Shown: one piece after another, positions 14,447 to 54,508 of the stretch
How positions within the stretch are numbered: the first letter of the stretch is position 1
Layout of the letters: every line of letters begins with the position of its first letter
Assembly: GCA_012689375.1 (NCBI GenBank)
Contig: JAAZLO010000028.1
Coordinates: 25,665 to 89,664, forward strand
Direction of reading: 5' to 3'
Source of the DNA: Bacillota bacterium
Lineage (GTDB): Bacteria > Bacillota > SHA-98 > UBA4971
DNA length: 64,000 nt
Made by a program: the position numbers and the translations under genes
Notes under the pieces: model-generated
What the model was told of the DNA's origin: nothing
The model's input: the letters and a program-made list of their open reading frames with translations, nothing else
Databases searched by the model: none

Positions 14447-15784
14447 ATGACTAACTCGAAAGCTTCAACGGCAGATAATAGTTTTTTTGAACGTATGTTT
14501 CAGCTTAAAACTAACGGCACAGATGTAAGGACCGAGTTGCTCGCCGGCATTACTACGTTCATGACAATGGCATATATTATAATTGTTAATCCGTCAATAC
14601 TCGGTGTCACAGGGATGGATAAAGGCGCGGTAATGGTGGCGACTATTCTCGGCGGTGTTGTAGGTACACTCCTTATGGCATTTCTCTCTAATTATCCCTT
14701 CGCGTTGGCTCCTGGCATGGGCCTTAATGCTTTTTTTGCATATACAATTGTTATGGGAATGGGAATCAGCTGGAAGGTTGCACTTGCAGCAGTATTTATA
14801 GACGGTGTAATATTCCTCATCCTGTCGCTGCTTCCGGTCAGAAGAAGAATAGTAAATGATATACCGATGACACTCAAACTCGCAGTCAGTGTAGGTATCG
14901 GCCTATTTATAGCATTTATCGGTCTTCAATCGGCAGGGGTAATTGTTGGAGATCCAGCAACTCTCCTGAGTCTGGGAAGTATATCATCACCTAATGTTTT
15001 GCTTTTCGTTGTCGGCCTTGCAATAATGGGAGTCTTAGTCGCCTACAGAGTAAAAGGTTCCCTCCTGCTTGGTATTCTTATTACAACGGCAATTAGTATG
15101 ATTTTCGGGCTGAGCCCTCATCCTACAGGGATTACAGATATCGTAAGCAAACCACCGAGCTTGATTCCTACGTTTATGCAAATGGATTTCCGAGGACTGT
15201 TTGACGTGGGATTAATAGCCGTCATATTTACATTTACGTTTGTTGATATGTTTGATACAGTCGGAACGCTTATCGGTGTATCGGCAAAGGCAGGATTCCT
15301 CGATAAAAAGGGAGAGTTGCCAAAGGCAGATCAGGCATTGCTTGCAGATGCCCTAGGTACAATTGCAGGGGCTGTGTTTGGGACAAGCACAGTAACTACA
15401 TATGTTGAAAGTGCATCCGGTGTTGCAGACGGGGGCAGAACAGGGTTAACAGGAGTAACTGTTGCGGTTTTATTTCTGCTGTCACTTTTCTTCGCACCTT
15501 TGGTTGAACTTATTCCCGGGGCTGCTACAGCGCCTGCCCTTGTTATCGTAGGAATATATATGATGGAACCGGTAGTTAAGATTGATTTCAGCGATTTTAC
15601 AGAAGCAATCCCCGCATTTTTAACTATTGCAATGATGCCTTTTGCATACAGCATAGCAGAAGGACTTGTTTGGGGAATTCTCGGATATGTTATTATTAAG
15701 TTTTTCGCACGGCGTACCAAGGAAATCAGTGTAACCATGTGGGTACTGGCAATCCTGTTTATCATTAGGTTTATCGCTTCATAA
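14447..15784 (+). CDS. pbuG: NCS2/AzgA-family purine (hypoxanthine/guanine/adenine) permease
   Basis: The N-terminal motif FFERMFQLKTNGTDVRTELLAGITTFMTMAYIIIVNP is characteristic of the AzgA/PbuG family. About 13 transmembrane helices. The ribosome binding site AAGGAGG is present. Confidence 0.8.
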   Translation: MTNSKASTADNSFFERMFQLKTNGTDVRTELLAGITTFMTMAYIIIVNPSILGVTGMDKGAVMVATILGGVVGTLLMAFLSNYPFALAPGMGLNAFFAYTIVMGMGISWKVALAAVFIDGVIFLILSLLPVRRRIVNDIPMTLKLAVSVGIGLFIAFIGLQSAGVIVGDPATLLSLGSISSPNVLLFVVGLAIMGVLVAYRVKGSLLLGILITTAISMIFGLSPHPTGITDIVSKPPSLIPTFMQMDFRGLFDVGLIAVIFTFTFVDMFDTVGTLIGVSAKAGFLDKKGELPKADQALLADALGTIAGAVFGTSTVTTYVESASGVADGGRTGLTGVTVAVLFLLSLFFAPLVELIPGAATAPALVIVGIYMMEPVVKIDFSDFTEAIPAFLTIAMMPFAYSIAEGLVWGILGYVIIKFFARRTKEISVTMWVLAILFIIRFIAS

Positions 15785-15824: not shown

Positions 15825-15867
15825 GTACAGCCCTTTCCTTCTACAGGTAGGGGCTGTATTTTATTCC
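15825..15867. terminator. Bidirectional intrinsic terminator between convergent pbuG and guaA
   Basis: An 8-9 bp GC-rich stem (GTACAGCCC / GGGCTGTAT), then TTTTATT on the plus strand. The T-run overlaps the guaA stop codon. Confidence 0.45.
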
Positions 15868-17162
15868 CATTCAATAGTGCCCGGCGGCTTTGAAGTTATA
15901 TCATAAACCACACGATTTACACCTTGGACCTCATAGGTGATACGGGAGGATATCTTTTCAAGTACAGAGTGGGGTAATTCAGCCCAATTACATGTCATTC
16001 CGTCAGAGCTATTAACTGCACGGATTACAATGGGTCTCTCATAGGTGCGCATACCGGAGGTTACTCCTACACTTCTGACATTAAGTAATACTGCAAAGGC
16101 TTGCCATAATTCATTATAGAGACCGGCATTCCCAATTTCCTCTTCAACAATAGCATTGGCTTCTCTTACAATATCAAGGCTTTCTTGGTTTACCTCACCC
16201 ACAATTCTGACACCAAGGCCCGGACCAGGGAAAGGATGCCTTTTCAAGACATGGCCGGGAATACCGAGCTTTTCACCGACTTCCCGTACTTCATCCTTAA
16301 ATAAGTACCGCAGCGGCTCTATAAGTTTAAATCGGATATTGTCAGGCAGTCCCCCGACATTATGATGAGACTTAACCCTAGTTTCCCCTATACCAGTGCC
16401 GGATGTGCTTTCCAACACATCAGAATAAAGAGTACCCTGTACAAGGAAATCTGTATTTCCCTCTAATTTAATAACCTCATCTTCAAAAACCTTAATGAAT
16501 TCACTGCCTATCCGCTTCCGCTTTTCTTCAGGATCCGTAACCCCTTTCAGAGTCTGGAGGAATCTGGCTTTTGCATCTACTATCCGGAGGTTCATTTTGA
16601 AGCCTTCCCCGAATATAAGCTTTACATCACTTGCTTCATTCTTACGCAAAAGACCTGTATCCACAAAGATACAGGTTAGTCTGTTACCAATAACTTTTTG
16701 TACCAGGACTGATGCAACAGATGAATCAACGCCTCCGGATAACCCGCAAATCGCCCGGTTGTTACCAATCTCGGATTTAATTTCCCTGAGTGAACGGGCA
16801 ATAAAATTTTCTGTAGTCCAATTCCCCGGGAAACCACATGTATCAAAAAGAAAATGTGAAAGCTCCTTATCCCCCTCACATGATCCCATTATGTAGTTTG
16901 GGTATGTAAAATCAGGAAGTCCACAGTTTACCCCTGCCACAGGGATACCAAGATCGAAGATCTCCCTGTCAAATACATCTGAAACATTGGAAGACACCTT
17001 AGGATCCGGATAGCCCGATAAAATAATTCCCTTGGGCTTTAAAGCTTCTAATTCTTCCTTACGAATACTGTAGGGAACAATTTGGGAATATACATGGAGC
17101 CCTCGGGCCTTTCGGGCAAGGGCCATACTGATCTGTAAATCAAAACTGACAATTAACAGCAT
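15861..17162 (-). CDS. guaA: GMP synthase, with a conserved ATP-pyrophosphatase/dimerisation part but a degenerate, internally deleted glutamine amidotransferase domain
   Basis: PP-loop SGGVDSSV. The C-terminus is near-identical in pattern to bacterial GuaA, ending ...KPPGTIEWE. The N-terminal amidotransferase region aligns only in part (LARKARGLHVYSQIVP, GIILSG). About 75 aa are missing between the GxCxG region and the FxFxxCxxEGxW linker, including the HPE catalytic block. Confidence 0.8.
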   Translation of the reverse strand: MLLIVSFDLQISMALARKARGLHVYSQIVPYSIRKEELEALKPKGIILSGYPDPKVSSNVSDVFDREIFDLGIPVAGVNCGLPDFTYPNYIMGSCEGDKELSHFLFDTCGFPGNWTTENFIARSLREIKSEIGNNRAICGLSGGVDSSVASVLVQKVIGNRLTCIFVDTGLLRKNEASDVKLIFGEGFKMNLRIVDAKARFLQTLKGVTDPEEKRKRIGSEFIKVFEDEVIKLEGNTDFLVQGTLYSDVLESTSGTGIGETRVKSHHNVGGLPDNIRFKLIEPLRYLFKDEVREVGEKLGIPGHVLKRHPFPGPGLGVRIVGEVNQESLDIVREANAIVEEEIGNAGLYNELWQAFAVLLNVRSVGVTSGMRTYERPIVIRAVNSSDGMTCNWAELPHSVLEKISSRITYEVQGVNRVVYDITSKPPGTIEWE

Positions 17163-17698
17163 TTGTTGTATACTTCCTCTTTCAAAACCCCCACCTCAGG
17201 CAGGTTCCTATAGTATTCAGCATAATCAAGACCGTAACCTACTACAAATTTATCAGCTATTGAAAACCCGCAATAATCAGGTTTAAATTCTACCTTTCTC
17301 CTTGAAGGCTTATCAAGGAGTGTGCAAACTTTAATGGATAAAGGTTTTCTCGCTTCAAGGTTACGAACTAAATAATGCATAGTCAAACCTGTATCAACAA
17401 TATCTTCGACAATCAAAACATGCCTGCCTTCTATAGGTTGATCCAGGTCTTTGAGTATCCTGACGACACCTGAGGTATCAGTGGAAACCCCGTAACTTGA
17501 TACAACCGCAAAATCCATGAGGACCGGTATTTTTATGTATCTGATAAGATCAGCCATAAACATAAGTGCACCTTTTAGGATACCTACAACAACAAGATCA
17601 CAATCCTTATAATCATCAGTGATCCTAGCACCAAGCTCTTTCACTTTCTCCCCGATTTCTTCTTTGGTTAAAAGTATTTGTTCGAGATCGTTTACCAC
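17153..17698 (-). CDS. hpt: Hypoxanthine-guanine phosphoribosyltransferase
   Basis: PRPP-binding motif HVLIVEDIVDTGLTM. Length and order are typical of Hpt. GTG start with an AGGGGG ribosome binding site. It overlaps the guaA start by 10 nt. Confidence 0.85.
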   Translation of the reverse strand: MVNDLEQILLTKEEIGEKVKELGARITDDYKDCDLVVVGILKGALMFMADLIRYIKIPVLMDFAVVSSYGVSTDTSGVVRILKDLDQPIEGRHVLIVEDIVDTGLTMHYLVRNLEARKPLSIKVCTLLDKPSRRKVEFKPDYCGFSIADKFVVGYGLDYAEYYRNLPEVGVLKEEVYNKCC

Positions 17699-17769: not shown

Positions 17770-17798
17770 ATTATACGTTGGGTTATTCATTAAGACAA
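17770..17798 (-). promoter_or_regulatory. Candidate sigma-A promoter for hpt-guaA
   Basis: On the minus strand, TTGTCT, a 17-nt spacer, then TATAAT, about 70 nt upstream of the hpt GTG start. Confidence 0.35.
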
Positions 17799-25008: not shown

Positions 25009-25857
25009 TCACCCTTCGAGATCTTCCATGCTCTTATCTGCATCAGGGAAGAACAACGGGCTTCCGTACTTATCAACACCGAAGTCCTTGACAATACTTT
25101 GGACTTCTTCTGATACCATGAATTCTACAAATGCCTGTCCGCCACGTCCGTCCACAACTTTGTGCTTGTCCGGATTAACCTGCATAACGTGATAAATATT
25201 AAGAAGAATCGCATCCCCTTCCACTAATATTTCGAGGTCTAAGCGATCTTTCATTGAAAGGTACGTCCCCCGATCAGTTAGACAATATGCCAATTTTTCA
25301 TTGGCGATATTAAGTGTATTTGCCATCCCGGTCCCGGCTTCCAGGTACCATTCCTTACCTGACGGTTCAAACCCGAGCTTATTCCAGACTTGCAACTCTT
25401 TCTTATGTGTGCCTGAATCATCAGCCCTGGAAACGAATGTTGCTTTCGCATCTACGATCTTTTCCAAAGTTCCCAAAGCGGATTTAAGGCCTTTAACTCC
25501 TGCGGGATCCTCAGGCGAGCCTACAATTACGAAGTCATTATGCATTACAAGTTGCCTGTTAATTACATCCCCGGCTTCAACCAGTTCCATTTCTGCAGCG
25601 GGAGCATGACAAAGAAGTACATCTGCCTCACCCTTCTGACCAAGGGCAAGGGCTGCACCAGTTCCTACTGCAATTGTTTTTACATTGTATCCGGTTTTCT
25701 CTTGGAAGATTGGGAGAAGGACATCTAGAAGGCCGGTGTCCCTCGTGCTAGTGGTGGTTGCGAGTATGAGTTCCTTCGGGGCTCCGATGGCTGTAAATCC
25801 TACGCAGGCTAAAATCATTAAGGCAATAACGGAAATCAACATGAATCGTCTTGGCAT
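25009..25857 (-). CDS. tupA: Tungstate ABC transporter substrate-binding protein (TupA-like)
   Basis: Signal peptide followed by the diagnostic TupA motif ATTTSTRDTGLLD. 282 aa. The ribosome binding site AGGAGA is present. Confidence 0.8.
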   Translation of the reverse strand: MPRRFMLISVIALMILACVGFTAIGAPKELILATTTSTRDTGLLDVLLPIFQEKTGYNVKTIAVGTGAALALGQKGEADVLLCHAPAAEMELVEAGDVINRQLVMHNDFVIVGSPEDPAGVKGLKSALGTLEKIVDAKATFVSRADDSGTHKKELQVWNKLGFEPSGKEWYLEAGTGMANTLNIANEKLAYCLTDRGTYLSMKDRLDLEILVEGDAILLNIYHVMQVNPDKHKVVDGRGGQAFVEFMVSEEVQSIVKDFGVDKYGSPLFFPDADKSMEDLEG

Positions 25858-25865
25858 TTAATAAC

Positions 25866-26000
25866 ATCTCCTTTCCAAGTATGGGAGGCTGCCAGGTTCC
25901 CCTGGGAGCCCTCGGATCACACCTGTAATTGTGTGATCGCCGGTCAACTTGCCATTACCGTGTTCTTTGAGGCAAGATGACTCGGAGAAAAACTTATTGT
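25866..26000 (-). promoter_or_regulatory. Molybdenum-cofactor (Moco/Tuco) riboswitch candidate in the tupA leader
   Basis: The minus-strand leader reads ...CUCCGAG...CCGAGGGCUCCCAGGGGAACCUGGCAGCCUCCCAUACUUGGAAAGGAG AUG. The E. coli moaA Moco aptamer 3' half reads CCAGGGCGAAGG...GCCUCCCGUAUCUGGAAAGG. In both, the terminal CCUCCC...GGAAAGG overlaps the ribosome binding site. Confidence 0.55.
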
Positions 26001-32120: not shown

Positions 32121-33923
32121 ATGTCACTGTATCCGATAAGAAAACATCTTTACGAGATAGGCCATGAGCTGGTAGCTACTGCAACAGGAAGAACCCCGGC
32201 TGATGTCATTATTCGATCCGGGCGTTTAGTTAATGTTATAACACGTGAGATCCTTGATGGGCCGGATATTGCAATACGTTTTGGGCGGATTGCCCTAGTC
32301 GGGGATGCCTCAAAATGCAGAGGTAGGGATACTTTGGTTATAGATGCAAAGGGATCTTATCTGGTCCCGGGGTTTCTTGATGGTCATGTCCATATAGAAA
32401 GCAGCATGGTTACAGTGGGCCAGTTTGCCAAAGCAGTGCTCCCCTATGGAACCACCGCCGTCTTTATGGACCCCCATGAAATTGCAAATGTTCTTGGTAT
32501 GAAAGGGATCAAGTTAATGATAGAGGAGGGAAAAAATCTCCCGCTCAAAGTTTATACTACAATGCCGTCATGTGTCCCTGCGGCCCCGGGTTTTGAAGAT
32601 ACAGGAGCAGAAATTACCCCGGATGATATCAGTACTGCAATGGCCTGGGATGAAGTAGTGGGTTTAGGAGAAATGATGAATTTCCCCGGGGTTTTAGCGG
32701 GGGATCCTGATGTACACAAAAAAATTGCATCCACGTTGAAGGCAGGTAAAGTCGTCACTGGTCATTATGCTGTCCCTGATCTCGGTCCGAATTTATCCGG
32801 TTATGTATCGTGCGGTATTTTATCTTGCCACGAATCTGTCACTTGTCAGGAAAGCCTTGCTAAACTCAGGTTGGGGATGTATGCAAAACTCAGGGAGGGT
32901 TCAGGCTGGAAGAATATTAAAGAAACCATCAAAACCTATACTGAAGCAGATGCTGATCCTCGTCGTATAGTCTTGGTTACAGATGATGTCCATCCTGATA
33001 CCTTATTAACTTTAGGCCATATTAATCATGTGGTGAAACGGGTAATTGAAGAAGGAACACAGCCTATTACAGCTATTCAAATGGCTACCATTAATACTGC
33101 AGAATGTTTCGGGATGAGCCGCGATTTAGGAAGCATTACTCCGGGTAAGTTTGCGGATATTTTATTTATTGAGGATCTTGCAAATCCGTATCCTGAAAAG
33201 GTTATGGCGGACGGGAAGGTAATTGCTGAAAACCGGAAGATGCTCATGGAAATCCCGGTAGGGACCTACCCCAGGTATGCAACTAAATCTATGAATCTTG
33301 CGCGCTCTGTAGTCCCGGATGATTTTTATATTAGTTCAGGATCCCCGGGTAAAAGTGTTAGAATCCGGGTTATACAGGTTATAGAAGGCCAAGCCATAAC
33401 AAAACAGGTAGAAGTGGGAGTCTGCTCCGATAAAAATGGAGGAATTAATGCATCTCGCAATCAGGATTTAGCGAAGGCGGCTGTTATAGAAAGGCATAAG
33501 GGCACAGGTAAAATAGGGTTGGGTTTTGTTAAAGGGTTCGGGCTTCAATCCGGGGCAGTGGCTTCTACAGTCGCCCATGATAGCCACAACCTGCTTGTCA
33601 TGGGTATGGATGATGATGATATGGCTGTTGCAGCCAATACTTTGGCTGAAGTCGGCGGTGGAATGGTTGTTGTAAAACGGGGTGAAGTGATAGGCCTCCT
33701 TCCTTTACCTGTTGCGGGTCTTATGTCAAACAAACCGGTAGAGGAAGTCCAATTAAAGGTAGAAAGCCTGGCACAGGCATGGAAGGATTTAGGGTGTACC
33801 CTGACATCACCCTTTATGACTATGGCCATTCTTTCCTTACCTGTCATCCCTGAACTTCGCCTGACAAACCGAGGATTAGTTGATGTTGAAAAGTTCTGTT
33901 TTGTTCCTTTAGTGATTAGCTGA
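32121..33923 (+). CDS. ade: Adenine deaminase (amidohydrolase superfamily)
   Basis: 600 aa. Metal-binding block VPGFLDGHVHIESSM, and ADGKVIAEN in the second domain. The architecture is typical of Ade. Confidence 0.8.
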   Translation: MSLYPIRKHLYEIGHELVATATGRTPADVIIRSGRLVNVITREILDGPDIAIRFGRIALVGDASKCRGRDTLVIDAKGSYLVPGFLDGHVHIESSMVTVGQFAKAVLPYGTTAVFMDPHEIANVLGMKGIKLMIEEGKNLPLKVYTTMPSCVPAAPGFEDTGAEITPDDISTAMAWDEVVGLGEMMNFPGVLAGDPDVHKKIASTLKAGKVVTGHYAVPDLGPNLSGYVSCGILSCHESVTCQESLAKLRLGMYAKLREGSGWKNIKETIKTYTEADADPRRIVLVTDDVHPDTLLTLGHINHVVKRVIEEGTQPITAIQMATINTAECFGMSRDLGSITPGKFADILFIEDLANPYPEKVMADGKVIAENRKMLMEIPVGTYPRYATKSMNLARSVVPDDFYISSGSPGKSVRIRVIQVIEGQAITKQVEVGVCSDKNGGINASRNQDLAKAAVIERHKGTGKIGLGFVKGFGLQSGAVASTVAHDSHNLLVMGMDDDDMAVAANTLAEVGGGMVVVKRGEVIGLLPLPVAGLMSNKPVEEVQLKVESLAQAWKDLGCTLTSPFMTMAILSLPVIPELRLTNRGLVDVEKFCFVPLVIS

Positions 33924-42005: not shown

Positions 42006-42065
42006 ACTTTGCCTCTATGGTATAATTTCTTTAGGAGTTGTTTTCGTAATAAGCGGGGTATAGGC

Positions 42066-43544
42066 ATGAATTTTGGGAAAGACCGGTTTATTAAAGATGT
42101 GAAATTTACCATTAAACGGTTTGCCATGTTCGCCATGGGGGATCAGGTCATTGTGGGGGTATCGGGAGGACCTGATTCAGTTGCACTCTTGCATGTGTTG
42201 TACAAGTTGCAAAATGAGTTTGATATATCACTTCATGTAGCCCACCTGAATCATATGCTCAGGGGAGAAATCGCAGACGAGGAGGCAAGATATGTAAAGG
42301 ACTTTGCCAAAAGACTCGGTCTTAGCTGTACAATTGAATCAATTGATGTCAGAGATTATGCCTTCAAAAAAAGTATATCCACGGAACTGGCAGCCCGTGA
42401 TCTGCGTTATGATTTTTACATGCGTACAGCTATACGTGAAGGTGCCTCAAAGGTAGCATTGGGACATCATGCCGGTGATCAGGCTGAAACTGTACTTTTG
42501 AGGCTTATTCGCGGGACCGGGTTGACAGGTCTCCGGGGCATACCGGCTGTAAGGCCCCTTAACACAACAAGGAATATTACAATAGTCCGACCTTTAATTG
42601 AGTTAGTTCCTTCAAAAATTCTTACCTATTGCAATGAGACAGGACTTAAATATTACATAGACGCTTCAAATATCAATCCTGACTATTCTAGAAATAGAAT
42701 TAGGCATGAACTGATTCCCCGGCTTGAACAGGATTATAATCCTAAAGTGATTGAGGCTTTAGTTAACACTGCAGAATTAATACAAAAAGATGAGGATTAT
42801 ATGATCCGTAAAACCAAGGAGAAATTCAAGAAAGTGGTGGAATTCAAGTCCTCATGTAACGTAGTGATTAAAACAGCCGCCTTAAACAAGCAGCATGTGG
42901 CAATCCAAAGAAGAATCATAAGACAGGCAGTTCTGTATCTTACTGGCAAACTCGATGATTTCCAATTTATCCATGTAGAAAGTATTTTAAAGTTGGCTGC
43001 GTCAGGAAAGACCGGCTCTGTGATTTCATTGCCAGAAGAACTTCGGGGAAGGCTTGAGTATGGGCGAATTATAATAGAACGGACAGACAGGATTAAACCT
43101 CAGACATGTCCGGTTTTTGAATACAAGCTCAAAATCCCCGGGAAAACTGAAATTCCGGAGGCTTGTACAATAATAGAGGCCAATGTATTAAGTATCCTAA
43201 ATGCACCGGGTTTACCTGATCTTTTAGAATCAATAGTCTTTACCGGTAATGATGAGGCATATTTTGATATGGATATTATCGACGAGGACCTCACCGTAAG
43301 AAACAGGAGGCCGGGGGACAGGTTGTCACCTTTAGGGATGAAAGGGCATAAAAAGCTCAAGGATATCTTTATCGATGGGAAAATACCCAGGAACATAAGG
43401 GACTGTGTTCCCGTTATTGTATGGAGAGGGAAAATACTTTGGGTGGCAGGGATATGTATGGATGGTTTTGCAAAGCTTACCCCTGCTACTCAAAGGGTCC
43501 TTCATCTGAGGACTACACGCAGGTATCGTAGTTGTGATCAGTAG
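42066..43544 (+). CDS. tilS: tRNA(Ile)-lysidine synthetase
   Basis: PP-loop VGVSGGPDSVALLHVL about 30 aa from the chosen Met. The C-terminal TilS substrate-binding domain is present. The tracker start at 42009 would add a non-conserved 19-aa extension. Confidence 0.8.
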   Translation: MNFGKDRFIKDVKFTIKRFAMFAMGDQVIVGVSGGPDSVALLHVLYKLQNEFDISLHVAHLNHMLRGEIADEEARYVKDFAKRLGLSCTIESIDVRDYAFKKSISTELAARDLRYDFYMRTAIREGASKVALGHHAGDQAETVLLRLIRGTGLTGLRGIPAVRPLNTTRNITIVRPLIELVPSKILTYCNETGLKYYIDASNINPDYSRNRIRHELIPRLEQDYNPKVIEALVNTAELIQKDEDYMIRKTKEKFKKVVEFKSSCNVVIKTAALNKQHVAIQRRIIRQAVLYLTGKLDDFQFIHVESILKLAASGKTGSVISLPEELRGRLEYGRIIIERTDRIKPQTCPVFEYKLKIPGKTEIPEACTIIEANVLSILNAPGLPDLLESIVFTGNDEAYFDMDIIDEDLTVRNRRPGDRLSPLGMKGHKKLKDIFIDGKIPRNIRDCVPVIVWRGKILWVAGICMDGFAKLTPATQRVLHLRTTRRYRSCDQ

Positions 43545-43653
43545 TACCCTGTGTTATAATGTGCTTGCAATTTGTCGATTAAGTGGTTGAATAGGGTATT
43601 AATGAGATTTTTATGCGCCTGATGCGTGGTGGTGACCAATGGGAGGAAATCAA

Positions 43654-45618
43654 TTGAACAAGGTACTGAGAACGCTTGGGCTATGGCTTTTATTGGGTCT
43701 TATGGCTGTATCAATTGCCAGCACTTTTTATGGTCAGAAATCGACCCCGACAAAGATTGGCCTAAGTACATTTATGGACAACCTTGATTCCGGCAATATC
43801 ACAAAACTCAATATTATCGGTGATGATAAGATTGAGGGGCAATTAAGGAGCGGTGAGGATTTTGAAACGCACGTTCCTGATATAACTCTTGTTACTGATA
43901 AGCTGAAAGACAAGGAAGGCCCACTTGCAGGAATTGAGGTAGTATCTGAACCGAAGCCTGCTTCACCGTGGTGGTACACGGTATTACCACAGGTAATCTC
44001 AATGTTGTTTTTTATCGGGTTATGGTTCTTTCTCGTTAACCAAATGCAAGGCGGCGGTAATAAGGCCCTCTCTTTCGGAAAAAGCAGAGCAAGGCTTCAT
44101 ATGGAAGAACGCGGGAAAACTACTTTTGCGGATGTAGCCGGAATTGATGAAGCCAAGGAAGAGCTTGCGGAAATCGTGGAATTCCTTAAACATCCCAGAA
44201 AGTTTGTGGAATTGGGGGCTCAAATACCAAAGGGAGTTCTCCTTGTAGGGCCTCCGGGGACCGGGAAGACTCTCCTTGGACGGGCTGTTGCAGGCGAAGC
44301 AGGGGTCCCGTTTTTTATTATCAGCGGATCGGACTTCGTAGAGATGTTTGTGGGTGTAGGTGCTTCCAGAGTACGGGATCTTTTCGAACAAGCTAAGAAA
44401 AACGCCCCATGTATCATATTTATTGATGAAATCGATGCTGTCGGCAGGCAACGCGGTGCAGGCCTCGGTGGAGGTCATGATGAAAGGGAACAAACGCTGA
44501 ACCAACTTCTTGTGGAAATGGATGGGTTCGAATCCAATACAGGCATAATTCTCTTGGCTGCAACGAATAGGCCTGATGTCCTAGATCCTGCTTTACTCAG
44601 GCCGGGACGTTTCGATCGGCAAGTAGTTGTGGATATGCCGGATATCAAAGGTAGAGAGGGAATCCTACGGGTGCATGCCCGTAACAAGCCTTTGTCAAAA
44701 GATGTAGATCTTCTTTTTATAGCCCAAAGAACACCTGGGTTTACCGGAGCCGATCTGGAGAACGTTCTTAATGAAGCTGCAATCCTGGCAGCAAGACGTG
44801 GAAGTAAAACTATTACAATGGATGATTGTGATGAAGCAATAGATCGAGTTATAGCAGGTCCGCAGAAAAAGAGCAGGGTTATGAGTGACAAAGAAAGGGA
44901 TTTGGTGGCATTTCATGAGGCAGGCCATGCTCTGGCAGGAAAGCTTTTGCCGAACGTAGATCCTGTTCAAAAGGTATCAATAATTCCCAGGGGAAGAATG
45001 GGCGGATATACGCTGATGCTTCCGGAGGAAGACAGATTCTTTAGAACAAAATCCGAAATGCTCGATAATATAGTGGTAACCCTTGCGGGAAGGGTCGCTG
45101 AGGAAATAACATTTGATGAGATATCCACAGGGGCAGAAAATGATTTAAGCAGGGTTGCAAAGGTAGCCCGCAAGATGGTTACCGAATACGGTATGAGTGA
45201 AGAATTAGGCCCGTTATCCCTCGGGGGCCGCCGCGAAGAGCTTGTATTCCTTGGGCGGGATTTGGCCCATGACAGAGATTATAGTGAGGAAGTGGCTGCA
45301 TTAATTGATCGTGAGGTCAGAAGGATTGTTGATGAATCCTACGATCGAGCCAGGAGCCTCCTGATAAATAATAAGGACAAATTAATCAGGCTTGCCAATG
45401 CTTTGAGGGAAAGAGAAACCCTTGACGGAGACGAAATTGATGAAGTGTTAGCTGATAAGGCCGGGGCGGATGCAATAGATACAGAAGAGACAGTTGCCCA
45501 CTCGCCTGCTGCAATTCTTGTGGACGAAGAAGCAGATTCAAGGGAACAAGTTGATGCAGGCAAACCCAGGGTCTCATCAAGGAGGCCGAAGTTTGCGGAG
45601 AGCCCGGGCGGGGCATAA
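43654..45618 (+). CDS. ftsH: ATP-dependent zinc metalloprotease FtsH
   Basis: Walker A motif GPPGTGKT, Walker B motif IIFIDEID, second region of homology motif [19 protein letters not shown], and zinc motif [11 protein letters not shown] start with a GGGAGGAAA ribosome binding site gives the N-terminus MNKVLRT, matching the Bacillus FtsH pattern MNRVFRN. Confidence 0.9.
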
Positions 45619-45695: not shown

Positions 45696-47354
45696 GTGAA
45701 AGGTGTGGCTCGCATAATAAAAGCCCCCCGGGGTTCGGAAATTTCATGTAAAGGCTGGCAACAAGAAGCTGCCATGCGAATGCTTATGAATAATCTGGAT
45801 CCTGATGTTGCTGAGAATCCACAGGAGCTCGTTGTATATGGTGGTCGAGGTAAAGCTGCACGTAACTGGGATGCCTTTGAAGCTATAGTGGGAAGTCTTA
45901 AAGCTCTTGAAAATGATGAAACCCTCCTCGTTCAATCAGGAAAACCTGTAGGTGTATTTCGTACCCATAAGCTTGCCCCAAGAGTGTTAATATCAAATTC
46001 AATGCTTGTTCCGAAATGGGCTACATGGGATGATTTCTGGGAGCTTGAAGAAAAAGGCCTTACCATGTACGGGCAGATGACTGCAGGAAGTTGGATTTAT
46101 ATTGGTACACAAGGCATTCTGCAGGGGACATATGAGACTTTTGCGGAAGCTGCAAAGCAACATTTCGGTGGGAGCCTGGCAGGGAAATTAACTTTAACCG
46201 CCGGCTTGGGCGGAATGGGCGGAGCTCAGCCTTTAGCCGTTACCATGAACGATGGTGTTGCTATCGTAGTTGAAGTAAATGAGGATCACATAAAACGAAG
46301 GCTGGAGACTGGGTATTGTGACACAATGACAACAAGTATTGATGAGGCTGTGGAACTTGCCCGTAAAGCACAAAAGGATAAAAGGCCGCTTTCCATAGCA
46401 TTGCTTGGTAATGCAGCTGTAACTCATCCCGAGTTTGTGAGGCGCGGGGTGATCCCTGATGTAGTTACAGATCAAACTTCAGCCCATGATCCGCTCGGCG
46501 GCTATATCCCCATAGGTCTTTCTTTAGAGGAGGCAAAGGAATTACGGGAGTGTGACCCTAAAGGCTACATAAAGCAGGCTATGAAATCCATGGCGATCCA
46601 AGTTGAGGCTATGCTTGAAATGAAAAGCAGAGGGGCCGCAGTTTTTGATTACGGCAATAACATAAGGCAGCAAGCCTATGATACAGGAGTGAAGGATGCA
46701 TTTTCTTATCCTGGGTTTGTGCCTGCTTATATTAGGCCCCTTTTTTGTGAAGGTAAAGGACCTTTCAGGTGGGTGGCACTTTCTGGAGATCCGGCTGATA
46801 TTTACAAAACCGATGAAGTTGTATTAAAGGAATTCCCCGATGATAAGCATTTAACCCAATGGATTACATTTGCCCGTGAAAAAGTGCAATTTCAGGGATT
46901 ACCTTCTAGAATATGCTGGCTGGGATATGACGAGCGGGCAAGATTTGGTAAGGCAATAAATAATTTAGTAAGGCGCGGCGAAATATCGGCCCCTATTGTA
47001 ATAGGAAGGGATCATCTTGATACAGGTTCAGTTGCATCCCCGAATCGAGAAACGGAAAGCATGAAAGACGGGAGCGATGCCATAGCCGATTGGCCGATTT
47101 TAAATGCACTGTTGAATGCAGTATCCGGTGCCTCCTGGGTATCGGTCCATCATGGTGGAGGCGTTGGAATAGGATATTCAATTCACGCAGGAATGGTAGT
47201 GGTTGCAGACGGGAGCGATGATGCGGATTTCCGTTTAGAACGGGTACTTACCACTGATCCGGGTTCCGGAATAATCCGTCATGCTGATGCAGGATATGAT
47301 AAGGCTGTTGAAACTGCGCGAAAGTGGGGTATTAAAATCCCGATGCGGGGTTAA
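45696..47354 (+). CDS. hutU: Urocanate hydratase
   Basis: 552 aa. The N-terminus [33 protein letters not shown] matches the HutU pattern in B. subtilis, and the NAD-binding core is present. The start is probably GTG (45696 or 45708). Confidence 0.85.
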
Positions 47355-49471: not shown

Positions 49472-52400
49472 ATGAAAACGGAGTTTTGCCGAAAGACTTT
49501 TTTAACAGGTATTATTATTGCTCTATTGATAGGAATCGCTTTTACTGTCAAATCGTTTCCAGTTAACGGCAAATCAATTAAAAATTATATGTATATGCAT
49601 GTGGATGATCGCGTCCTTTCATTTTCTGAGAATGCTTTGCTTTATGTAAGGGGGAAAGGGTTGACAAGGATTGACTTCCGTATATGGAAGTTCAATCCGA
49701 ATCTTTATTACAGAAGCCATGGGTCATTATCCCTATGCCTGGAGCGGATGCCGGAAAATGCAAAGCTAATCCAGGAATTTTCAGAATACCCCCGCCTGAA
49801 AAAAGCTGGTGAGGAATTTTCCGTGAATATAAAAATTCACCCTGAGGGCCCAGGGGGGTACTTGATTAAGGCCCGGGATAATGAAGGGCGTGAAGTATGC
49901 GAATGGTTTCTTGTAACTGAACTTGGGCTTATAACAAAACAAAGCCAAGATAAGCTTTTAGTGTACGCCTGCGCGTTTGATAAAGGTGAACCACAAACCG
50001 GTGTGGATATTACAGTATATGACGGGAGTATGGAGGTAATCGGGAAAGGTATTACCGATGGTAACGGGTTCTATATCCTAAATGCAAAAGATATCCCTGA
50101 AGGGGGTATTTCTATAGTCGGTACCAAGGGGGACCCCGGAACAGAGAGTTTTGCCGAAGTAAAGTCATGGAATTATTGGGAAAATGCTGGCTATAATGTG
50201 TACATTTATACTGACAGGCCTATATACAGACCTGGTCAGAAAGTATCATGGAAAGGTATTCTCAGGGAAAGTACCGGTGGGGGGTTTAAGGTTTTAGGTG
50301 GGGAGGAAATCAGTGTTGAAATCAGGGATCCCAAAGATGCATGTATATATAAAATAGAGGCTGAAACCAATAATTACGGGTCCTTCACTGGAGATGTTAT
50401 ATTAGGGGATGAGCCATCTTTAGGTACTTATAGGGTCCTTGTCAAAGTCAGGGGGAGTGTCCATTATGGCCGATTTAAAGTAGCTGAATACAGAAAACCT
50501 GAGTATGAAATTAAAGTGAATACTGACAAGCAGGTGTATATTGCAGGTGATGATATATCCTGTAAAATTGAGGCTGCTTATTATTTTGGGAAACCTGTCC
50601 CTGATGGGAAAGTAAAATATGCAGTTTATTCTCAAACGTATTACCGGCCTTTTCGTTCTACAGAGGACCTGGGCTACTTTTCAATTACAGATGATGATTA
50701 CGGGTATTATGGGGAATTGGTGGATTCAGGGGAAGGAGTAACGTCAGGGGACGGAACCATGGGATTTACTATAAAGACAGGAAGGACAGAAAGGACCAAA
50801 AGGCTGTTTATTGAGACAACAGTTACAGACGAAAGTCATAGGGAGGTTACAGGCAGGGCTTCAATAATATTAGCCAGGGGCCTTTTTGATTTAACGGCCC
50901 AACCTACAGAATATATTGTATCACCGGGGGGTTCGGCGGAAATTCATGTAAAAGGGGTTACCCTTGAAGAAAAGCCTTATTCCGTAGAATTCACGTGGCA
51001 ATCCATGAGAATCACATGGGATGGTAATAAATCAATAAGGTGGAAGGAGCAATCCGGAGTAGCGACCACAGGTATCGACGGTAAGGGTGTCTTCGAATTT
51101 ACTCCGGAAGAGGAAGGTTCGTATGTGGTGGAAGTATCCGCGACTGATGCCAGAGGTAACCATATAGTTGAAGAAGCATACATCTGGGTGGCAAGCAGTA
51201 CAGGCAGGCAATGGAATTACGGAGGAACTGAAATTGAAATAGTGTCTGATAAGGATGTTTACGAATTAGGAGATACAGCTAAAATCCTTGTGAATACGAC
51301 TCTTGACGATACTTGGGCAATTATTACTGTGGAAGGCCGGGATCTCCTTTTTTATGAAGCATTAAAGCCTACAGGATGCATGCGCCTGTTTGAAATCCCG
51401 ATAACTGAGGAATTCTGTCCTAATTGTTTTTTTACCGTGACACTCGTTCGGGGGAAGCAGTTTTATTCCCGGGAAAAAACTATATATGTCTCAATGAAGG
51501 ATAAGTTCCTAGATGTATCCATAATCCCCGATAAGGAAATATACAGCCCCGGTGAAAAGGGTTCTTATACAATTAAGATCCGAGATCACAAAGGTCGCCC
51601 TGTTCAGGCAGAGCTTTCCTTGGGTGTTGTCGATGCATCTATATATGCCGTACAAAAAGAACTTGCTCCTGATATCAGAAAAGCATTTTACGGTTCGGTT
51701 TGGAATATGACAGTTACAAACTATTCCTTCCCTCAATGGTATTTTGGGGGTGCAGATAAAGAGGGGGATGCATCAGAGATTCGTAAGGATTTTCCTGATA
51801 CTGCCCTTTGGGAGCCTATAATTCTCACTGACAAAAAAGGCACGGCGAGAATCAATTTCCAAATGCCTGATTCCTTAACTACGTGGAAAGCCACTGTACG
51901 GGCGCATACCCGGGAAACTCAGGTAGGGTTTGCTACAAATGATGTAATAACTACAAAGGATTTCATTTGCAGGCTGTCCACACCAAGATTCTTTACTTTG
52001 GGTGATACGGCCTATGTATCCACTATTATCCACAACTATACTGAAAACAGGGTGAATGCGGAGGTTAAACTTAGGGCTGAGGGAATAACGCTATGTGACA
52101 AGGATAAGCGCACTGTGGTACTGTCTGCAGGAGAGCAGGTATCCCTGGATTGGAAAGTTATATGTGATAAAGCAGGGATAGCAAAATTCACCGTCTTAGC
52201 TAAAGCAGGGAGAGCACAGGATGCCTTAGAGCTCAGTGTACCCGTAATCCCTTTCGGTAGAAGTATAAGAGAGTTTAAAAGCGGTGAAATAGGAGATAGC
52301 CCAGGAAATAACGATAAAGCACATATTGAATTTAATATCCCTGAAGATGTTCTGGATAATACGACAGATGTTGAAGTAAGGCTTGCCCCGTCAGTGGCAG

Positions 52401-54508
52401 CAACTGCATTGGGGGCACTGGAATATCTTACATCTTACCCGTATGGGTGTGTTGAACAAACAATGAATTCATTTCTTCCTAATATTATTGTATCTGGGAC
52501 CCTTGGGGAACTTGGCATTGAAATACCGGAAATTACGAAAGATCTTCCGAAAATGGTTGAGGCGGGCCTTGCCCGAATATACAGGTATCAGCATTATGAA
52601 GGCGGTTGGGGTTGGTGGGAATTTGATAAGCCTAATTCAAGGATGACAGCCTATGCAGTATATGGCCTTGAACTTGCAAAAAGAGCAGGTTTTAATGTTG
52701 ATGAAGAAGTGTTTATGCGAGGCAGAAGGGCCTTAGGGAATTTCCTTGATACCCCGCGGAATGTTGATGATCTCATATATAATTTATTTGTTATGTCTGA
52801 AACCGGGGAAAAAGCTTTGCCTCGTCTTGATGAGATGATTCTGAGAAAAAGGGAGGCCTCTAATTATTCCCTTGCCCTTCTTGCTTTAACTCTGAAAAAC
52901 ATAGGCAGACAGGATGATGCAGCACTATTATGCAAGGATCTGCTCAGGCTTTCCCGGAGTGACGGGATCAGTACCTACTGGGAATCTTCTGTCAACGAAT
53001 GGTACTGGGCTGATAATCGTGTTGAAACAACTGCATACGCACTTTTAGCTATGCTTTCTATAGATCCCGGTAACCCCAGGGCTTCTCAGGTTGTGCGGTG
53101 GTTATCAGGGGAGCGTTTGGGTATAGCCTGGAATTCCACAAAGGACACAGCCATTGCTGTTATGGCTTTAACTGAATATATGAAGGTCCATGGGGATTTA
53201 GGATCGAATGTATCCGCTGCGATAGAACTTAACGGGAGGCGGGTTAAGGGGATAAAGTTCACCCAAAAGAATTTATGGGATAAAGAACAGATAATCAAAA
53301 TAGATCCGAGCCAGTTAGTGAAAGGGAAAAATGAACTTATTATTGAGAAAACAGGGGAAGGAAGGCTCTATTATTCCGTTGCAAGTAAATACTATACACC
53401 CTCTGAAATTATTATGCCTGAAGAAGGCGGCCTTAGGGTAAGGCGGGGTTATTATTACAAAACACAGGATGACAGTGTTTATGAGCCTGTCACAGGCCCT
53501 GTGAAACCAGGGGATGAGATAATAGTCAGGATTACTATAAAAACGGAGAGTCCCCAAACGTATATTATGATTGAGGATCCTGTCCCGTCAGGATTTGAGG
53601 TAGTGGATACGTCTTATGATATTTACAGTTGGGATTTTTGGTACGGCCGTAAGGAAATCCATGATACGAAAGTAGCCGTTTTCAGTGCTTATCTTGAAGA
53701 AGGTGAGAATGAAATAATATATTCCATCAGGGCGGAGCGGCCGGGTGAATATAAAATAATGCCTACAAAAGCTTGGGGAATGTATGCGCCTGATATTTAC
53801 GGCAGCTCGGAAAGTTCAGAAATAGTATGCCAAGTACCGGTATTGGCTGCATTTTCCACCACTGTTAAAGAATCTGAATTAAACCGGAATCATAATATAG
53901 CCCTTGCTTCTTCTGTAGTTAATGGATCTGTTATTCAGCCCGGAGAGATATTTTCCCTTGACAAGGCTCTCGGACCAAGATCGGAATCCAATGGTTATAA
54001 AAATGCCCGTATTCTTTCAGGGGGGAAAAGCTTGCCCGGGACGGCAGGGGGGATCTGTCAAGTATCCACAACGCTGTACAATGTTGCTTTAAGAGCAGGC
54101 TTGGAAATAATTGAACGCCACCCTCATTCACAGCCTATAGACTATGTATCTCCTGGGCTTGATGCTACAATCAGTGATGAAGCCGGGCTTGATTTACAAT
54201 TTAAAAACCGGTTAGATGTACCTCTCATCATTAATATGCATATAGAGGGTGCAAGGCTTATTGCCGAAATAAAAGGGAAAGTTTCTAAGCCTCAAAACGT
54301 ATACATTACAACTGAAATCCTAAACGTGGAGAGGCCTCGCCTTTTGGGGGACAGTTCCGATGATTTTAAGGTCTCAGGCGGGAGAAATGGAATTCGGGTT
54401 GCCGTATGGCGAACTATGGATACCTGTGGTACAATTCAACGGGAGCTTATATCGGAGGATTATTACAAACCTATCCATGCGTTGGCATGGGGTATGAGAC
54501 AATATTAA
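49472..54508 (+). CDS. Bacterial alpha-2-macroglobulin-family protein (thioester-type) with a C-terminal VanW-like domain
   Basis: 1678 aa with an N-terminal signal anchor. The thioester region YPYGCVEQTMNSFLPNII (compare human A2M, PYGCGEQNMVLFAPNIY) is embedded in MG-domain-like beta-rich repeats. The last ~200 aa carry VanW-type blocks: PGEIFSLD, GGICQVSTTLYNVAL, ERHPHS and GLDATISDEAGLDLQFKN. Confidence 0.7.
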   Translation: MKTEFCRKTFLTGIIIALLIGIAFTVKSFPVNGKSIKNYMYMHVDDRVLSFSENALLYVRGKGLTRIDFRIWKFNPNLYYRSHGSLSLCLERMPENAKLIQEFSEYPRLKKAGEEFSVNIKIHPEGPGGYLIKARDNEGREVCEWFLVTELGLITKQSQDKLLVYACAFDKGEPQTGVDITVYDGSMEVIGKGITDGNGFYILNAKDIPEGGISIVGTKGDPGTESFAEVKSWNYWENAGYNVYIYTDRPIYRPGQKVSWKGILRESTGGGFKVLGGEEISVEIRDPKDACIYKIEAETNNYGSFTGDVILGDEPSLGTYRVLVKVRGSVHYGRFKVAEYRKPEYEIKVNTDKQVYIAGDDISCKIEAAYYFGKPVPDGKVKYAVYSQTYYRPFRSTEDLGYFSITDDDYGYYGELVDSGEGVTSGDGTMGFTIKTGRTERTKRLFIETTVTDESHREVTGRASIILARGLFDLTAQPTEYIVSPGGSAEIHVKGVTLEEKPYSVEFTWQSMRITWDGNKSIRWKEQSGVATTGIDGKGVFEFTPEEEGSYVVEVSATDARGNHIVEEAYIWVASSTGRQWNYGGTEIEIVSDKDVYELGDTAKILVNTTLDDTWAIITVEGRDLLFYEALKPTGCMRLFEIPITEEFCPNCFFTVTLVRGKQFYSREKTIYVSMKDKFLDVSIIPDKEIYSPGEKGSYTIKIRDHKGRPVQAELSLGVVDASIYAVQKELAPDIRKAFYGSVWNMTVTNYSFPQWYFGGADKEGDASEIRKDFPDTALWEPIILTDKKGTARINFQMPDSLTTWKATVRAHTRETQVGFATNDVITTKDFICRLSTPRFFTLGDTAYVSTIIHNYTENRVNAEVKLRAEGITLCDKDKRTVVLSAGEQVSLDWKVICDKAGIAKFTVLAKAGRAQDALELSVPVIPFGRSIREFKSGEIGDSPGNNDKAHIEFNIPEDVLDNTTDVEVRLAPSVAATALGALEYLTSYPYGCVEQTMNSFLPNIIVSGTLGELGIEIPEITKDLPKMVEAGLARIYRYQHYEGGWGWWEFDKPNSRMTAYAVYGLELAKRAGFNVDEEVFMRGRRALGNFLDTPRNVDDLIYNLFVMSETGEKALPRLDEMILRKREASNYSLALLALTLKNIGRQDDAALLCKDLLRLSRSDGISTYWESSVNEWYWADNRVETTAYALLAMLSIDPGNPRASQVVRWLSGERLGIAWNSTKDTAIAVMALTEYMKVHGDLGSNVSAAIELNGRRVKGIKFTQKNLWDKEQIIKIDPSQLVKGKNELIIEKTGEGRLYYSVASKYYTPSEIIMPEEGGLRVRRGYYYKTQDDSVYEPVTGPVKPGDEIIVRITIKTESPQTYIMIEDPVPSGFEVVDTSYDIYSWDFWYGRKEIHDTKVAVFSAYLEEGENEIIYSIRAERPGEYKIMPTKAWGMYAPDIYGSSESSEIVCQVPVLAAFSTTVKESELNRNHNIALASSVVNGSVIQPGEIFSLDKALGPRSESNGYKNARILSGGKSLPGTAGGICQVSTTLYNVALRAGLEIIERHPHSQPIDYVSPGLDATISDEAGLDLQFKNRLDVPLIINMHIEGARLIAEIKGKVSKPQNVYITTEILNVERPRLLGDSSDDFKVSGGRNGIRVAVWRTMDTCGTIQRELISEDYYKPIHALAWGMRQY

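Follow-up and report, generated by a model that had tools for sequence, protein, structure and literature searches.

The guaA gene considered here lies at 15861..17162 on the minus strand of a 64,000-nucleotide stretch of a Bacillota contig (JAAZLO010000028.1), hereafter the window, whose own numbering is used throughout. From an ATG start to a stop codon at 15861-15863, it encodes a variant guanosine monophosphate (GMP) synthetase (GMPS; GuaA) of 433 amino acids (aa), identified from the list of open reading frames (ORFs), Pfam and NCBIfam matches, and matches to PDB sequences. The synthetase module, an ATP pyrophosphatase (ATPPase) followed by a dimerisation domain, is predicted to be working, and the N-terminal class I glutamine amidotransferase (GATase) domain has lost about half of its fold together with its catalytic residues. 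On the best reading of this architecture, GuaA of the window and of its short-form relatives (the truncated clade, made up of an exact match, P0001, and the protein clusters P0002-P0013) is probably an ammonia-dependent GMP synthetase, with ammonia as its likely physiological substrate.

In the mechanism that we propose, a single in-frame deletion of ~76 codons in an ancestor of this Bacillota lineage would have taken out the latter half of the class I amidotransferase fold, with the catalytic His and Glu, and the nucleophile Cys column and the oxyanion motif would have decayed after the deletion. The intact ATPPase domain would adenylate and aminate xanthosine monophosphate (XMP) with free cellular NH3/NH4+, not with channelled ammonia (XMP + ATP + NH3 -> GMP + AMP + PPi), and the 118-aa remnant would persist as a small folded alpha/beta domain whose helix alpha1 docks on alpha11, alpha12 and the lid loop of the synthetase. 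Loss of the glutaminase would be tolerable because the hosts live in anaerobic digesters, where ammonium stands at ~0.1-0.3 M.

Loss of the glutaminase active site

The extent of the loss was mapped with a hidden Markov model (HMM) of the GATase domain built here from 97 full-length homologues. The remnant spans HMM positions 3-84 and 174-203, and the ~89 positions between them (85-173) are absent, with ~11 junction residues in their place, giving a net shortening of 76 aa (433 aa against 509 aa in the closest intact sister enzyme). These figures bear out the earlier note on this DNA, which had estimated a GATase domain of about 120 aa instead of about 200 (118 aa against ~205 aa here) and an alignment gap of ~75 aa. 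The match to Pfam GATase (PF00117) is limited to profile positions 3-81 of 190 and scores 24 bits against a cut-off of 22.8, and TIGR00888, which describes the N-terminal part of guaA, reaches 51.5 bits, below its cut-off of 172.15. The N-terminus of this GuaA does not, in short, hold a complete class I amidotransferase fold of ~190 aa.

Three segments make up what is left, all on the minus strand. Residues 1-78 (16929..17162), delimited by GATase HMM positions 3-84 and by an AlphaFold2 model, carry the order beta1-alpha1-beta2-alpha2-beta3-alpha3-beta4 and include the interface helix alpha1 (aa 9-21, motif R17-K-A-R20-G). A junction of residues 79-94 (NCGLPDFTYPNYIMGS; 16881..16928), placed by the alignments and the model, replaces the former nucleophile elbow and its helix; the point of the 76-aa deletion, by which the His/Glu block was removed, lies at its end. 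The GATase C-terminal helix and the interdomain linker (aa 95-118; 16809..16880) are retained, corresponding to HMM positions 174-203 and to a model helix at residues 95-108. On the model, the deletion takes from the GATase sheet its second half, which is mostly antiparallel, and leaves the parallel four-stranded half and the closing helix.

The catalytic His and Glu of the HPE block fall within the deleted segment in all clade members. At the elbow, where the window protein reads G77-V-N-C-G-L-P83, pairwise HMMER comparison and a 57-sequence alignment align Asn79 (16926-16928) with the position at which 98% of full-length sequences have Cys, and Cys80 (16923-16925) with an invariant Tyr, although the register is ambiguous here, one MAFFT alignment pairing Cys80 with the Cys by means of a 3-residue gap. 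With Asn79 at the Cys column, the G-x-C-x-G elbow would have no nucleophile. The second Gly of the SGGP motif is substituted in most clade members, by Tyr in the window protein and by Ser elsewhere. The alignments thus show that the triad is not intact, as anticipated from the GVNCGLP reading and the missing HPE block. Because His and Glu are deleted, Asn stands at the Cys column and SGGP is altered, the protein should be unable to hydrolyse glutamine, and the glutaminase is predicted to be dead throughout the truncated clade.

The junction is rich in cysteines in some members (e.g. INCKACGLSC in P0002), and a metal site there was considered and rejected. The other cysteines are absent from the window protein and from P0013; since Cys80 is the sole conserved junction Cys, there is no conserved metal site.

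An intact synthetase module

The ATPPase, or PP-loop, catalytic domain comprises residues 119-320 (16203..16808, minus strand), as judged from TIGR00884, invariant columns and motifs, and contains the P-loop SGGVDSS at 16719-16739. It is followed by the dimerisation domain (GMP_synt_C, PF00958; aa 321-433; 15864..16202), which ends in KPPGTIEWE. The match to TIGR00884, the C-terminal part of guaA, reaches 469.2 bits (cut-off 338.75) and that to PF00958 141.8 bits (cut-off 27; E = 7e-42, aa 341-432), and the closest solved structures are those of bacterial GMP synthetases (phmmer against PDB sequences, E = 2e-122 to 5e-115). The columns of the PP-loop S142-G-G-V-D-S-S148 are invariant in the 57 aligned sequences. 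Motif definitions are available for the lid loop, IK(T/S)HHN, for alpha11, DxxES, and for alpha12, KD(D/E)V(K/R) (bioRxiv 10.1101/808618), and the window protein carries all three, as VKSHHNVGGLP, SDVLES and KDEVR; the GMPS C-terminal signature KPPxTxE(F/W)x (PMC9312489) is likewise present in its final residues. All residues reported to be catalytic or to bind XMP or ATP are therefore accounted for, namely the P-loop, the alpha11 Asp, KSHHN, the two Lys of alpha12 and KPPxTIEWE. The synthetase and dimerisation part had been described as almost perfectly conserved, and it is canonical, with every motif kept. We predict that the module is a full and working member of the GMP synthetase ATPPase family that catalyses the conversion of XMP to GMP.

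Five replacements are specific to the clade and fall at sites with 85-98% conservation among full-length enzymes: H155Q (16698-16700); P247S (16422-16424), just before the alpha11 DxxES motif and next to the catalytic Asp; I263V (16374-16376), in the lid motif IKSHHN; and, where the dimerisation domain has its GVMGD hairpin, M368S/T (16059-16061) and D370G (16053-16055). They may represent adjustments to the lost surface of the GATase partner.

The strength of the synthetase match has a consequence for annotation. NF000848, the equivalog for glutamine-hydrolysing GMP synthase (EC 6.3.5.2), scores 561.5 bits against a cut-off of 400, in two separate stretches, with window residues ~92-433 aligning to profile positions 171-512 of 512. 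Since the score exceeds the cut-off, annotation pipelines will call the protein glutamine-hydrolysing, and JGI labels P0011-P0013 in this way. For truncated GuaA, both this name and EC 6.3.5.2 would be wrong on sequence grounds.

Predicted fold and role of the remnant

The AlphaFold2 model was run on the 57-sequence alignment and has a mean predicted local distance difference test (pLDDT) score of 82.9 and a predicted template-modelling (TM) score of 0.83. The remnant is modelled with strands at residues 2-6, 26-30, 45-49 and 75-78 and helices at 9-21, 35-41 and 60-71, ahead of the long helix at 95-108; pLDDT is 83-90 over the first 50 residues and 54-77 in the junction. In Foldseek, the query TM score is 0.81-0.84 against two-domain bacterial GMPS structures and 0.61-0.65 against the ATPPase-only archaeal subunits, and this higher score to the two-domain structures suggests that the remnant is placed at the usual GATase site.

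What such a remnant might do is indicated by work on PfGMPS, in which the interdomain interface of the 0-degree state is formed by the (K/R)(K/R)xRE motif of GATase alpha1 with DxxES of ATPPase alpha11 and KD(D/E)V(K/R) of alpha12 (bioRxiv 10.1101/808618). Helices alpha11 and alpha12 also bear catalytic residues, and mutation in alpha1 (K24L, H20) cuts kcat by half when NH4Cl is the nitrogen donor, a reaction in which the glutaminase is not needed (bioRxiv 10.1101/808618). The alpha1 motif is kept in the truncated clade, where it reads RKARE for the most part (RKARG in the window protein), and R17 and R20 are invariant across the 57 aligned sequences. With this motif, SDVLES and KDEVR all kept, what survives in the remnant is thus the very element known to contact the synthetase and to modulate it. 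By analogy with PfGMPS and on the model, it would serve as a structural buttress rather than as a catalyst.

Distribution and age of the short form

Alongside the exact match P0001, the protein collection holds 12 clusters of the same short form (P0002-P0013), 67-75% identical to the window protein; ten are 433 aa long, one is 434 aa and one is a 421-aa partial sequence. The next matches after these are normal enzymes of 509-515 aa. The short form is found on JGI, ENA, NCBI and Logan contigs, from dozens of assemblies that are independent of one another and were built by different assemblers. The collection lists P0002 in 27 index blocks, with 24 contigs read; P0013 lies on 19 contigs, among them the 1.45-Mb JGI contig Ga0534105_00027. 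Five GTDB species representatives carry it (UBA5449, UBA4981, AMR_MDS_2058, SBF912LR0HQ0073 and AS23ysBPME_252), all of them metagenome-assembled genomes (MAGs) of uncultured Bacillota, with contig prefixes DIQZ01, DGZL01, DAOSZN01, JBMNFG01 and JAAYRV01, and with SBF912LR0HQ0073 built from long reads; a literature search on the names UBA5449, UBA4981, AS23ysBPME_252 and AMR_MDS_2058 returned no papers.

In a neighbour-joining tree of the C-terminal 315 residues (200 bootstraps, with support given as bipartition frequencies), the short forms are monophyletic in 100% of replicates, and the window protein branches first. Seven divergent clade genes align without gaps over codons 1-118; the boundaries of the deletion are thus common to them, which points to one ancestral event. 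This event must be old, since the synonymous distance (dS) between the window gene and most other clade members is saturated.

The gene has also kept its place. The nearest full-length clade, whose 509-aa enzymes have ~66% identity in the synthetase part, derives from MAGs of biogas fermenters, and this sister lineage (GCA_012516125.1 among its MAGs) carries its intact guaA at the same locus position, likewise overlapping hpt, the purine phosphoribosyltransferase gene. In every long contig, the order is constant: molybdenum/tungsten cofactor (Moco) genes, hpt, guaA, a permease on the opposite strand, an aminotransferase, pcrA, ligA and gatCAB. The truncated gene is therefore the positional orthologue of a normal guaA, that is, the regular guaA of the organism, and the deletion occurred in place. 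Six-frame translations of the 64-kb window and of loci L001-L012, searched with home-made GATase and ATPPase HMMs, contain no second GATase or guaA. A 433-aa ORF upstream of the gene at locus L093, considered as an inverted second copy, proved to encode an unrelated protein of helicase/restriction type, truncated where the contig ends.

Selection on the two parts

Ratios of nonsynonymous to synonymous substitution (dN/dS) were calculated by the Nei-Gojobori method with 1000 bootstrap replicates, from pairs with unsaturated dS only; less diverged pairs within the clade were used because dS is saturated for pairs that include the window gene. In the truncated clade, dN/dS is 0.05-0.13 for the synthetase part (codons 119-433) and 0.17-0.27 for the N-terminal 117 codons, with upper 95% bootstrap bounds of at most 0.57 for the latter. 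The N-terminal value exceeds the C-terminal one in 92-100% of replicates and reached 1 in none of the 1000, and over the same N-terminal columns an intact sister pair gives 0.045. The remnant is thus relaxed about two- to four-fold, yet, with dN/dS well below 1, it is clearly still under purifying selection. Constraint is uneven within it: conservation among clade members is 86% for alpha1, which equals that of the ATPPase domain (86%), with mean identities of 80-86% over alpha1 and strands beta2 to beta4 and a range of 77-86% for alpha1 and the beta strands, against ~60% for the loops, the junction and the last helix. The earlier note had argued against a dead pseudogene and for selection that continued on one domain but eased on the other. 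The first part stands, given a conserved clade and a synthetase dN/dS of 0.05-0.13; the second needs tempering, because the remnant has not been set free (0.17-0.27, without indels).

A second lineage and other shortened forms

The comparison took in 75 other bacterial loci. A full GATase domain is present in 71, two have a contig-end cut or a 42-residue insertion, and two are exceptions. Loci suspected of lacking the GATase, because their tblastn match covered only residues 91-433, all proved to have a complete domain. Bacterial enzymes are described in reviews as fused, two-domain and glutamine-using (PMC10526850, PMC9312489), and this description, together with the full GATase domain in 71 of the 73 other complete loci, agrees with the view that the short form is unusual for Bacteria. 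It is not unique, however, as a second independent lineage exists.

That lineage is represented by the first exception, L016 (802-2214), from the termite-gut Clostridiales MAG Nt197P3bin80, whose 422-aa GuaA keeps GATase HMM positions 1-57 (beta1-alpha1 RRVRE-beta2-beta3) and the last helix. A search with this protein returned a clade of 422-433-aa proteins at 69-82% identity (P0121-P0126), forms of 411 and 465 aa, and proteins of 317-340 aa (P0199, P0240 and others) with 75-81% identity in the synthetase part. The nearest full-length relatives are 521-aa enzymes of Anaerovoracaceae / Family XIII, so that the termite-gut Clostridiales lineage presents an erosion series of 521, 422, 338 and 317 aa. 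All of the forms that were looked up, including those at three further loci (L104, 3162-4115; L105, 3655-4671; L107, 8001-9269), lie in the order VanY-guaB-guaA with a guaB-guaA gap of 11-12 nt, and the available contig, 7.5-8 kb downstream and 3-8 kb upstream, contains no GATase gene. NCBI names two of the forms glutamine-hydrolysing GMP synthase. The truncated clade and this independent lineage together indicate that the GuaA glutaminase has been lost at least twice in anaerobic Bacillota, once to completion.

The second exception, P0015 (L091, 1355-2701), is a 448-aa guaA product of the sister clade known from a single Logan contig. Its in-frame deletion is a different one, of 63 positions (GATase HMM 116-178), which removes His and Glu and leaves Cys and SGGP in place, and its N-terminus gives a dN/dS of 0.045 against P0020, the 509-aa sister enzyme. 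P0015 may owe its form to a recent independent deletion or else to an assembly error. A Family XIII-like match, P0232 (448 aa, on an 11880-bp contig), is also a shortened guaA with a GATase Pfam match and may represent a further partial deletion.

Free ammonia as the probable nitrogen donor

The biochemistry of the family is favourable to an enzyme without a glutaminase. All GMPSs studied, and isolated ATPPase subunits as well, accept external ammonia, and ATPPase activity is independent of the GATase (PMC10526850). Values of Km for NH4+ are 26 mM in M. tuberculosis, 103 mM in E. coli and 174 mM in human GMPS (PMC10526850). PfGMPS made dead at its cysteines (C89A, C89A/C113A) retains NH4Cl-dependent activity, with a lower Km in the double mutant (PMC9312489). 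The sources of clade members are anaerobic-digester, biogas and fermentation metagenomes, and total ammonia nitrogen in digesters is typically 1.7-3 and up to >4 g N/kg, or ~120-290 mM (PMC7334858). It is from the use of external ammonia, the independence of the ATPPase from the GATase, and digester ammonium at or above Km that the ammonia-dependent reading follows.

Several points weigh against it. The NH4+ Km values of the characterised enzymes are high (26-174 mM; PMC10526850), and the habitat evidence comes from other clade members, the sample of the window itself (ENA ERZ27280802) standing outside it. Cys80 is kept in ten of ten clade members where full-length enzymes always have Tyr, a feature that this reading does not account for. 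Sister grouping with the 509-aa clade has a bootstrap of 61% only, the grouping being backed by the synteny common to both clades. The buttress role assigned to the remnant is based on mutants of a distant homologue and on the overall fold of an AlphaFold2 model. Finally, the absence of a second full-length guaA or of a stand-alone GuaA-type GATase was established for the 64-kb window and for the 10 kb around the gene in relatives, and either could lie elsewhere in the genome.

This last point bears on the alternative in which glutamine is still used through a separate glutaminase, either an archaeal-type GuaA-A or another class I GATase, that docks on the alpha1 remnant or on alpha11/alpha12. 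A two-subunit GMPS does exist in archaea, where the subunits associate only transiently (PMC10526850), the interface motifs of alpha1 and alpha11/alpha12 are conserved in the clade, and the GATase search extended over the window and 10-kb flanks. Within that range, including the 64-kb window itself, no candidate partner was found, and the termite-gut guaA genes, which lie 11-12 nt after guaB, lack an adjacent GATase gene too. The remnant, moreover, appears to fill the alpha11/alpha12 place at which a trans-acting GATase would dock (TM 0.84 to two-domain structures against 0.65 to ATPPase-only ones), and the reviews know bacterial GMPS only as the fused two-domain type (PMC10526850, PMC9312489). 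We consider a two-component enzyme unlikely. Much the same searches enter into the question of whether the short copy is a redundant or sub-functionalised paralogue, a high-ammonia or salvage isozyme co-expressed with hpt, with a normal full-length guaA elsewhere in the genome. The adjoining hpt and purine permease do make a salvage context, and the search for a second guaA was confined to the window and flanks, but the gene corresponds, as positional orthologue, to the one guaA seen at the locus in the sister lineage, and strong purifying selection on the synthetase (dN/dS 0.05-0.13), maintained through a long divergence, speaks against a redundant copy. In a genome scan, which used query-specific peptides and was non-exhaustive, each of the five GTDB MAGs appears no more than once among the best 80 loci. 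A paralogue of this kind is accordingly quite unlikely.

A change of chemistry, with another nitrogen donor or adenylation substrate, or with the remnant and its Cys80 newly catalytic or regulatory, is more improbable. The replacements P247S, I263V, M368S/T, D370G and H155Q at otherwise near-invariant positions, and the uniform Tyr-to-Cys difference at residue 80, are what such a change might leave; against this, every reported catalytic or substrate-binding residue is kept, the genomic context is one of purine salvage, and the lack of conservation of the other junction cysteines in the window protein and P0013 leaves no conserved metal site. The last alternative is an error of assembly, or a gene that was broken recently and is still, by chance, in frame. 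An in-frame internal deletion on one contig would look alike, and P0015 in the sister clade is such a single-contig case. An assembly deletion, which the earlier note had left as a possibility, is nonetheless refuted by the recurrence of the same boundaries in dozens of assemblies, in five species MAGs and in at least 13 clusters, and decay is refuted with it, since there are no indels or stops in the N-terminal 118 codons and dN/dS is far below 1 in both parts. An ammonia-dependent GMP synthetase remains the reading that we prefer.

Genomic context

The gene hpt (17153..17698, minus strand; from the ORF list, with PF00156 Pribosyltran found for the identical gene at locus L092 and for relatives) overlaps the start of guaA by 10 nt with its stop, an overlap kept across the truncated clade and its sister clade, and the two are therefore probably one operon. 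Convergent with guaA is the gene for a permease of the purine/xanthine-uracil family (14447..15784, plus strand; from the ORF list, with PF00860 Xan_ur_permease found for the identical L092 gene and for relatives). A consensus scan returned a sigma-70-like match, TTGTCT-17-TATAAT, upstream of hpt (17770..17798, minus strand), which is a possible hpt-guaA promoter, if a weak candidate, because such sites are no commoner in the scan than shuffled expectation. An Rfam scan of the window at gathering thresholds found no purine riboswitch or T-box upstream of hpt-guaA. Its sole match is a Moco riboswitch at 25852-25999 (minus strand; 66.9 bits against a gathering threshold of 36), which precedes a substrate-binding/ABC transporter and MoeA/MoaA/MoaC block that itself stands before hpt-guaA.

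In Bacillus and many Firmicutes, hprT sits between tilS and ftsH. In the window, tilS (42009-43544, plus strand) comes directly before ftsH (43639-45618, plus strand), and the only hpt seen is the one at guaA, which suggests that hpt was relocated to the guaA locus. The window also encodes an adenine deaminase (32121-33923, plus strand) and a urocanase (45696-47354, plus strand). These belong to purine salvage and amino-acid catabolism and would release ammonia in the cell; they are consistent with an ammonia-rich physiology and are not evidence for it. The neighbouring hpt, purine permease and adenine deaminase fit a purine salvage that supplies inosine monophosphate and XMP. Elsewhere in the window, a 1678-aa protein (49472-54508, plus strand) joins alpha-2-macroglobulin domains (MG2, bait region, A2M, TED, bMG10) to a C-terminal VanW domain, an unusual fusion.

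Implications

Two bacterial lineages keep guaA, under strong selection, after excising its glutaminase, and free ammonia is probably the physiological nitrogen donor for guanine nucleotides there; if so, these lineages hold natural ammonia-dependent bacterial GMP synthetases. A literature text search found no specific description of a truncated or ammonia-dependent bacterial guaA. The short forms amount to a natural experiment that separates the supply of ammonia from whatever else the GATase gives the synthetase: the part that is kept is the sheet with alpha1, which mutagenesis has linked to ATPPase turnover. They would tie enzyme architecture to the ammonium load of digesters and may serve as a genomic marker of ammonia-adapted populations. 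They also expose a systematic annotation error, in which the equivalog cut-off for glutamine-hydrolysing GMP synthase is passed by a protein predicted to be unable to hydrolyse glutamine. More tentatively, and with considerable doubt on our part, loss of the glutaminase half could be a recurrent adaptive response of anaerobes to ammonia-rich niches such as digesters and termite hindguts, proceeding stepwise from the two-domain enzyme, through an alpha1 docking remnant, to a bare ATPPase. In a more exotic version, the conserved remnant with its invariant Cys80 would have gained a new gating or regulatory role.

Comparison with known systems

The canonical bacterial GuaA enzymes (E. coli, 1GPM; A. 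baumannii, 7SBC; N. gonorrhoeae, 5TW7) have the same ATPPase and dimerisation domains and the same catalytic motifs as the window protein, and are homologous in the remnant too, over the N-terminal strands, alpha1 and the last GATase helix. They differ in possessing the ~89 GATase positions and the His and Glu that are missing here, and in having neither the Asn at the Cys column nor the altered SGGP. The archaeal ATPPase subunit (P. horikoshii PH1347, 2DPL/3A4I; M. jannaschii, 6JP9) is likewise a synthetase without a fused active glutaminase, and in isolation forms GMP from external ammonia in vitro (PMC10526850). The window protein is 46-50% identical to these subunits, with a target TM of 0.94-0.95 over the shared part. 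In contrast to the archaeal subunit, which has no GATase remnant and is served by a dedicated GATase partner gene, it carries a fused and conserved 118-aa remnant and has no partner nearby.

Glutaminase-dead PfGMPS (C89A, C89A/C113A; 4WIO, 7ZU9) is close in behaviour to what is proposed here, in that glutamine activity is lost and NH4Cl-dependent GMP formation is kept. Those enzymes, however, are laboratory point mutants with a complete GATase fold, whereas the truncated clade presents a natural, clade-wide loss of half the fold. The NH3-dependent NadE of the same PP-loop superfamily (1XNG, 2E18) is also a free-ammonia synthetase, but it is a different enzyme with a different reaction, and its match to the window protein, seen in Foldseek too, is weak (E = 1e-6). 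In vertebrate carbamoyl-phosphate synthetase I, an inactive GATase-like domain is retained for structure or regulation, with the fold complete and only the Cys replaced. The likeness lies in a dead GATase-homologous domain kept beside a free-ammonia synthetase; the difference is that the whole fold persists in that enzyme, and half of it has been excised here. The nearest parallel within GuaA itself is the termite-gut series, in which the glutaminase was lost independently and alpha1 and the last GATase helix are kept in the 422-aa forms, although the lineage, the boundaries (HMM 1-57 only) and the VanY-guaB-guaA context are different, and in some members the domain is wholly lost.

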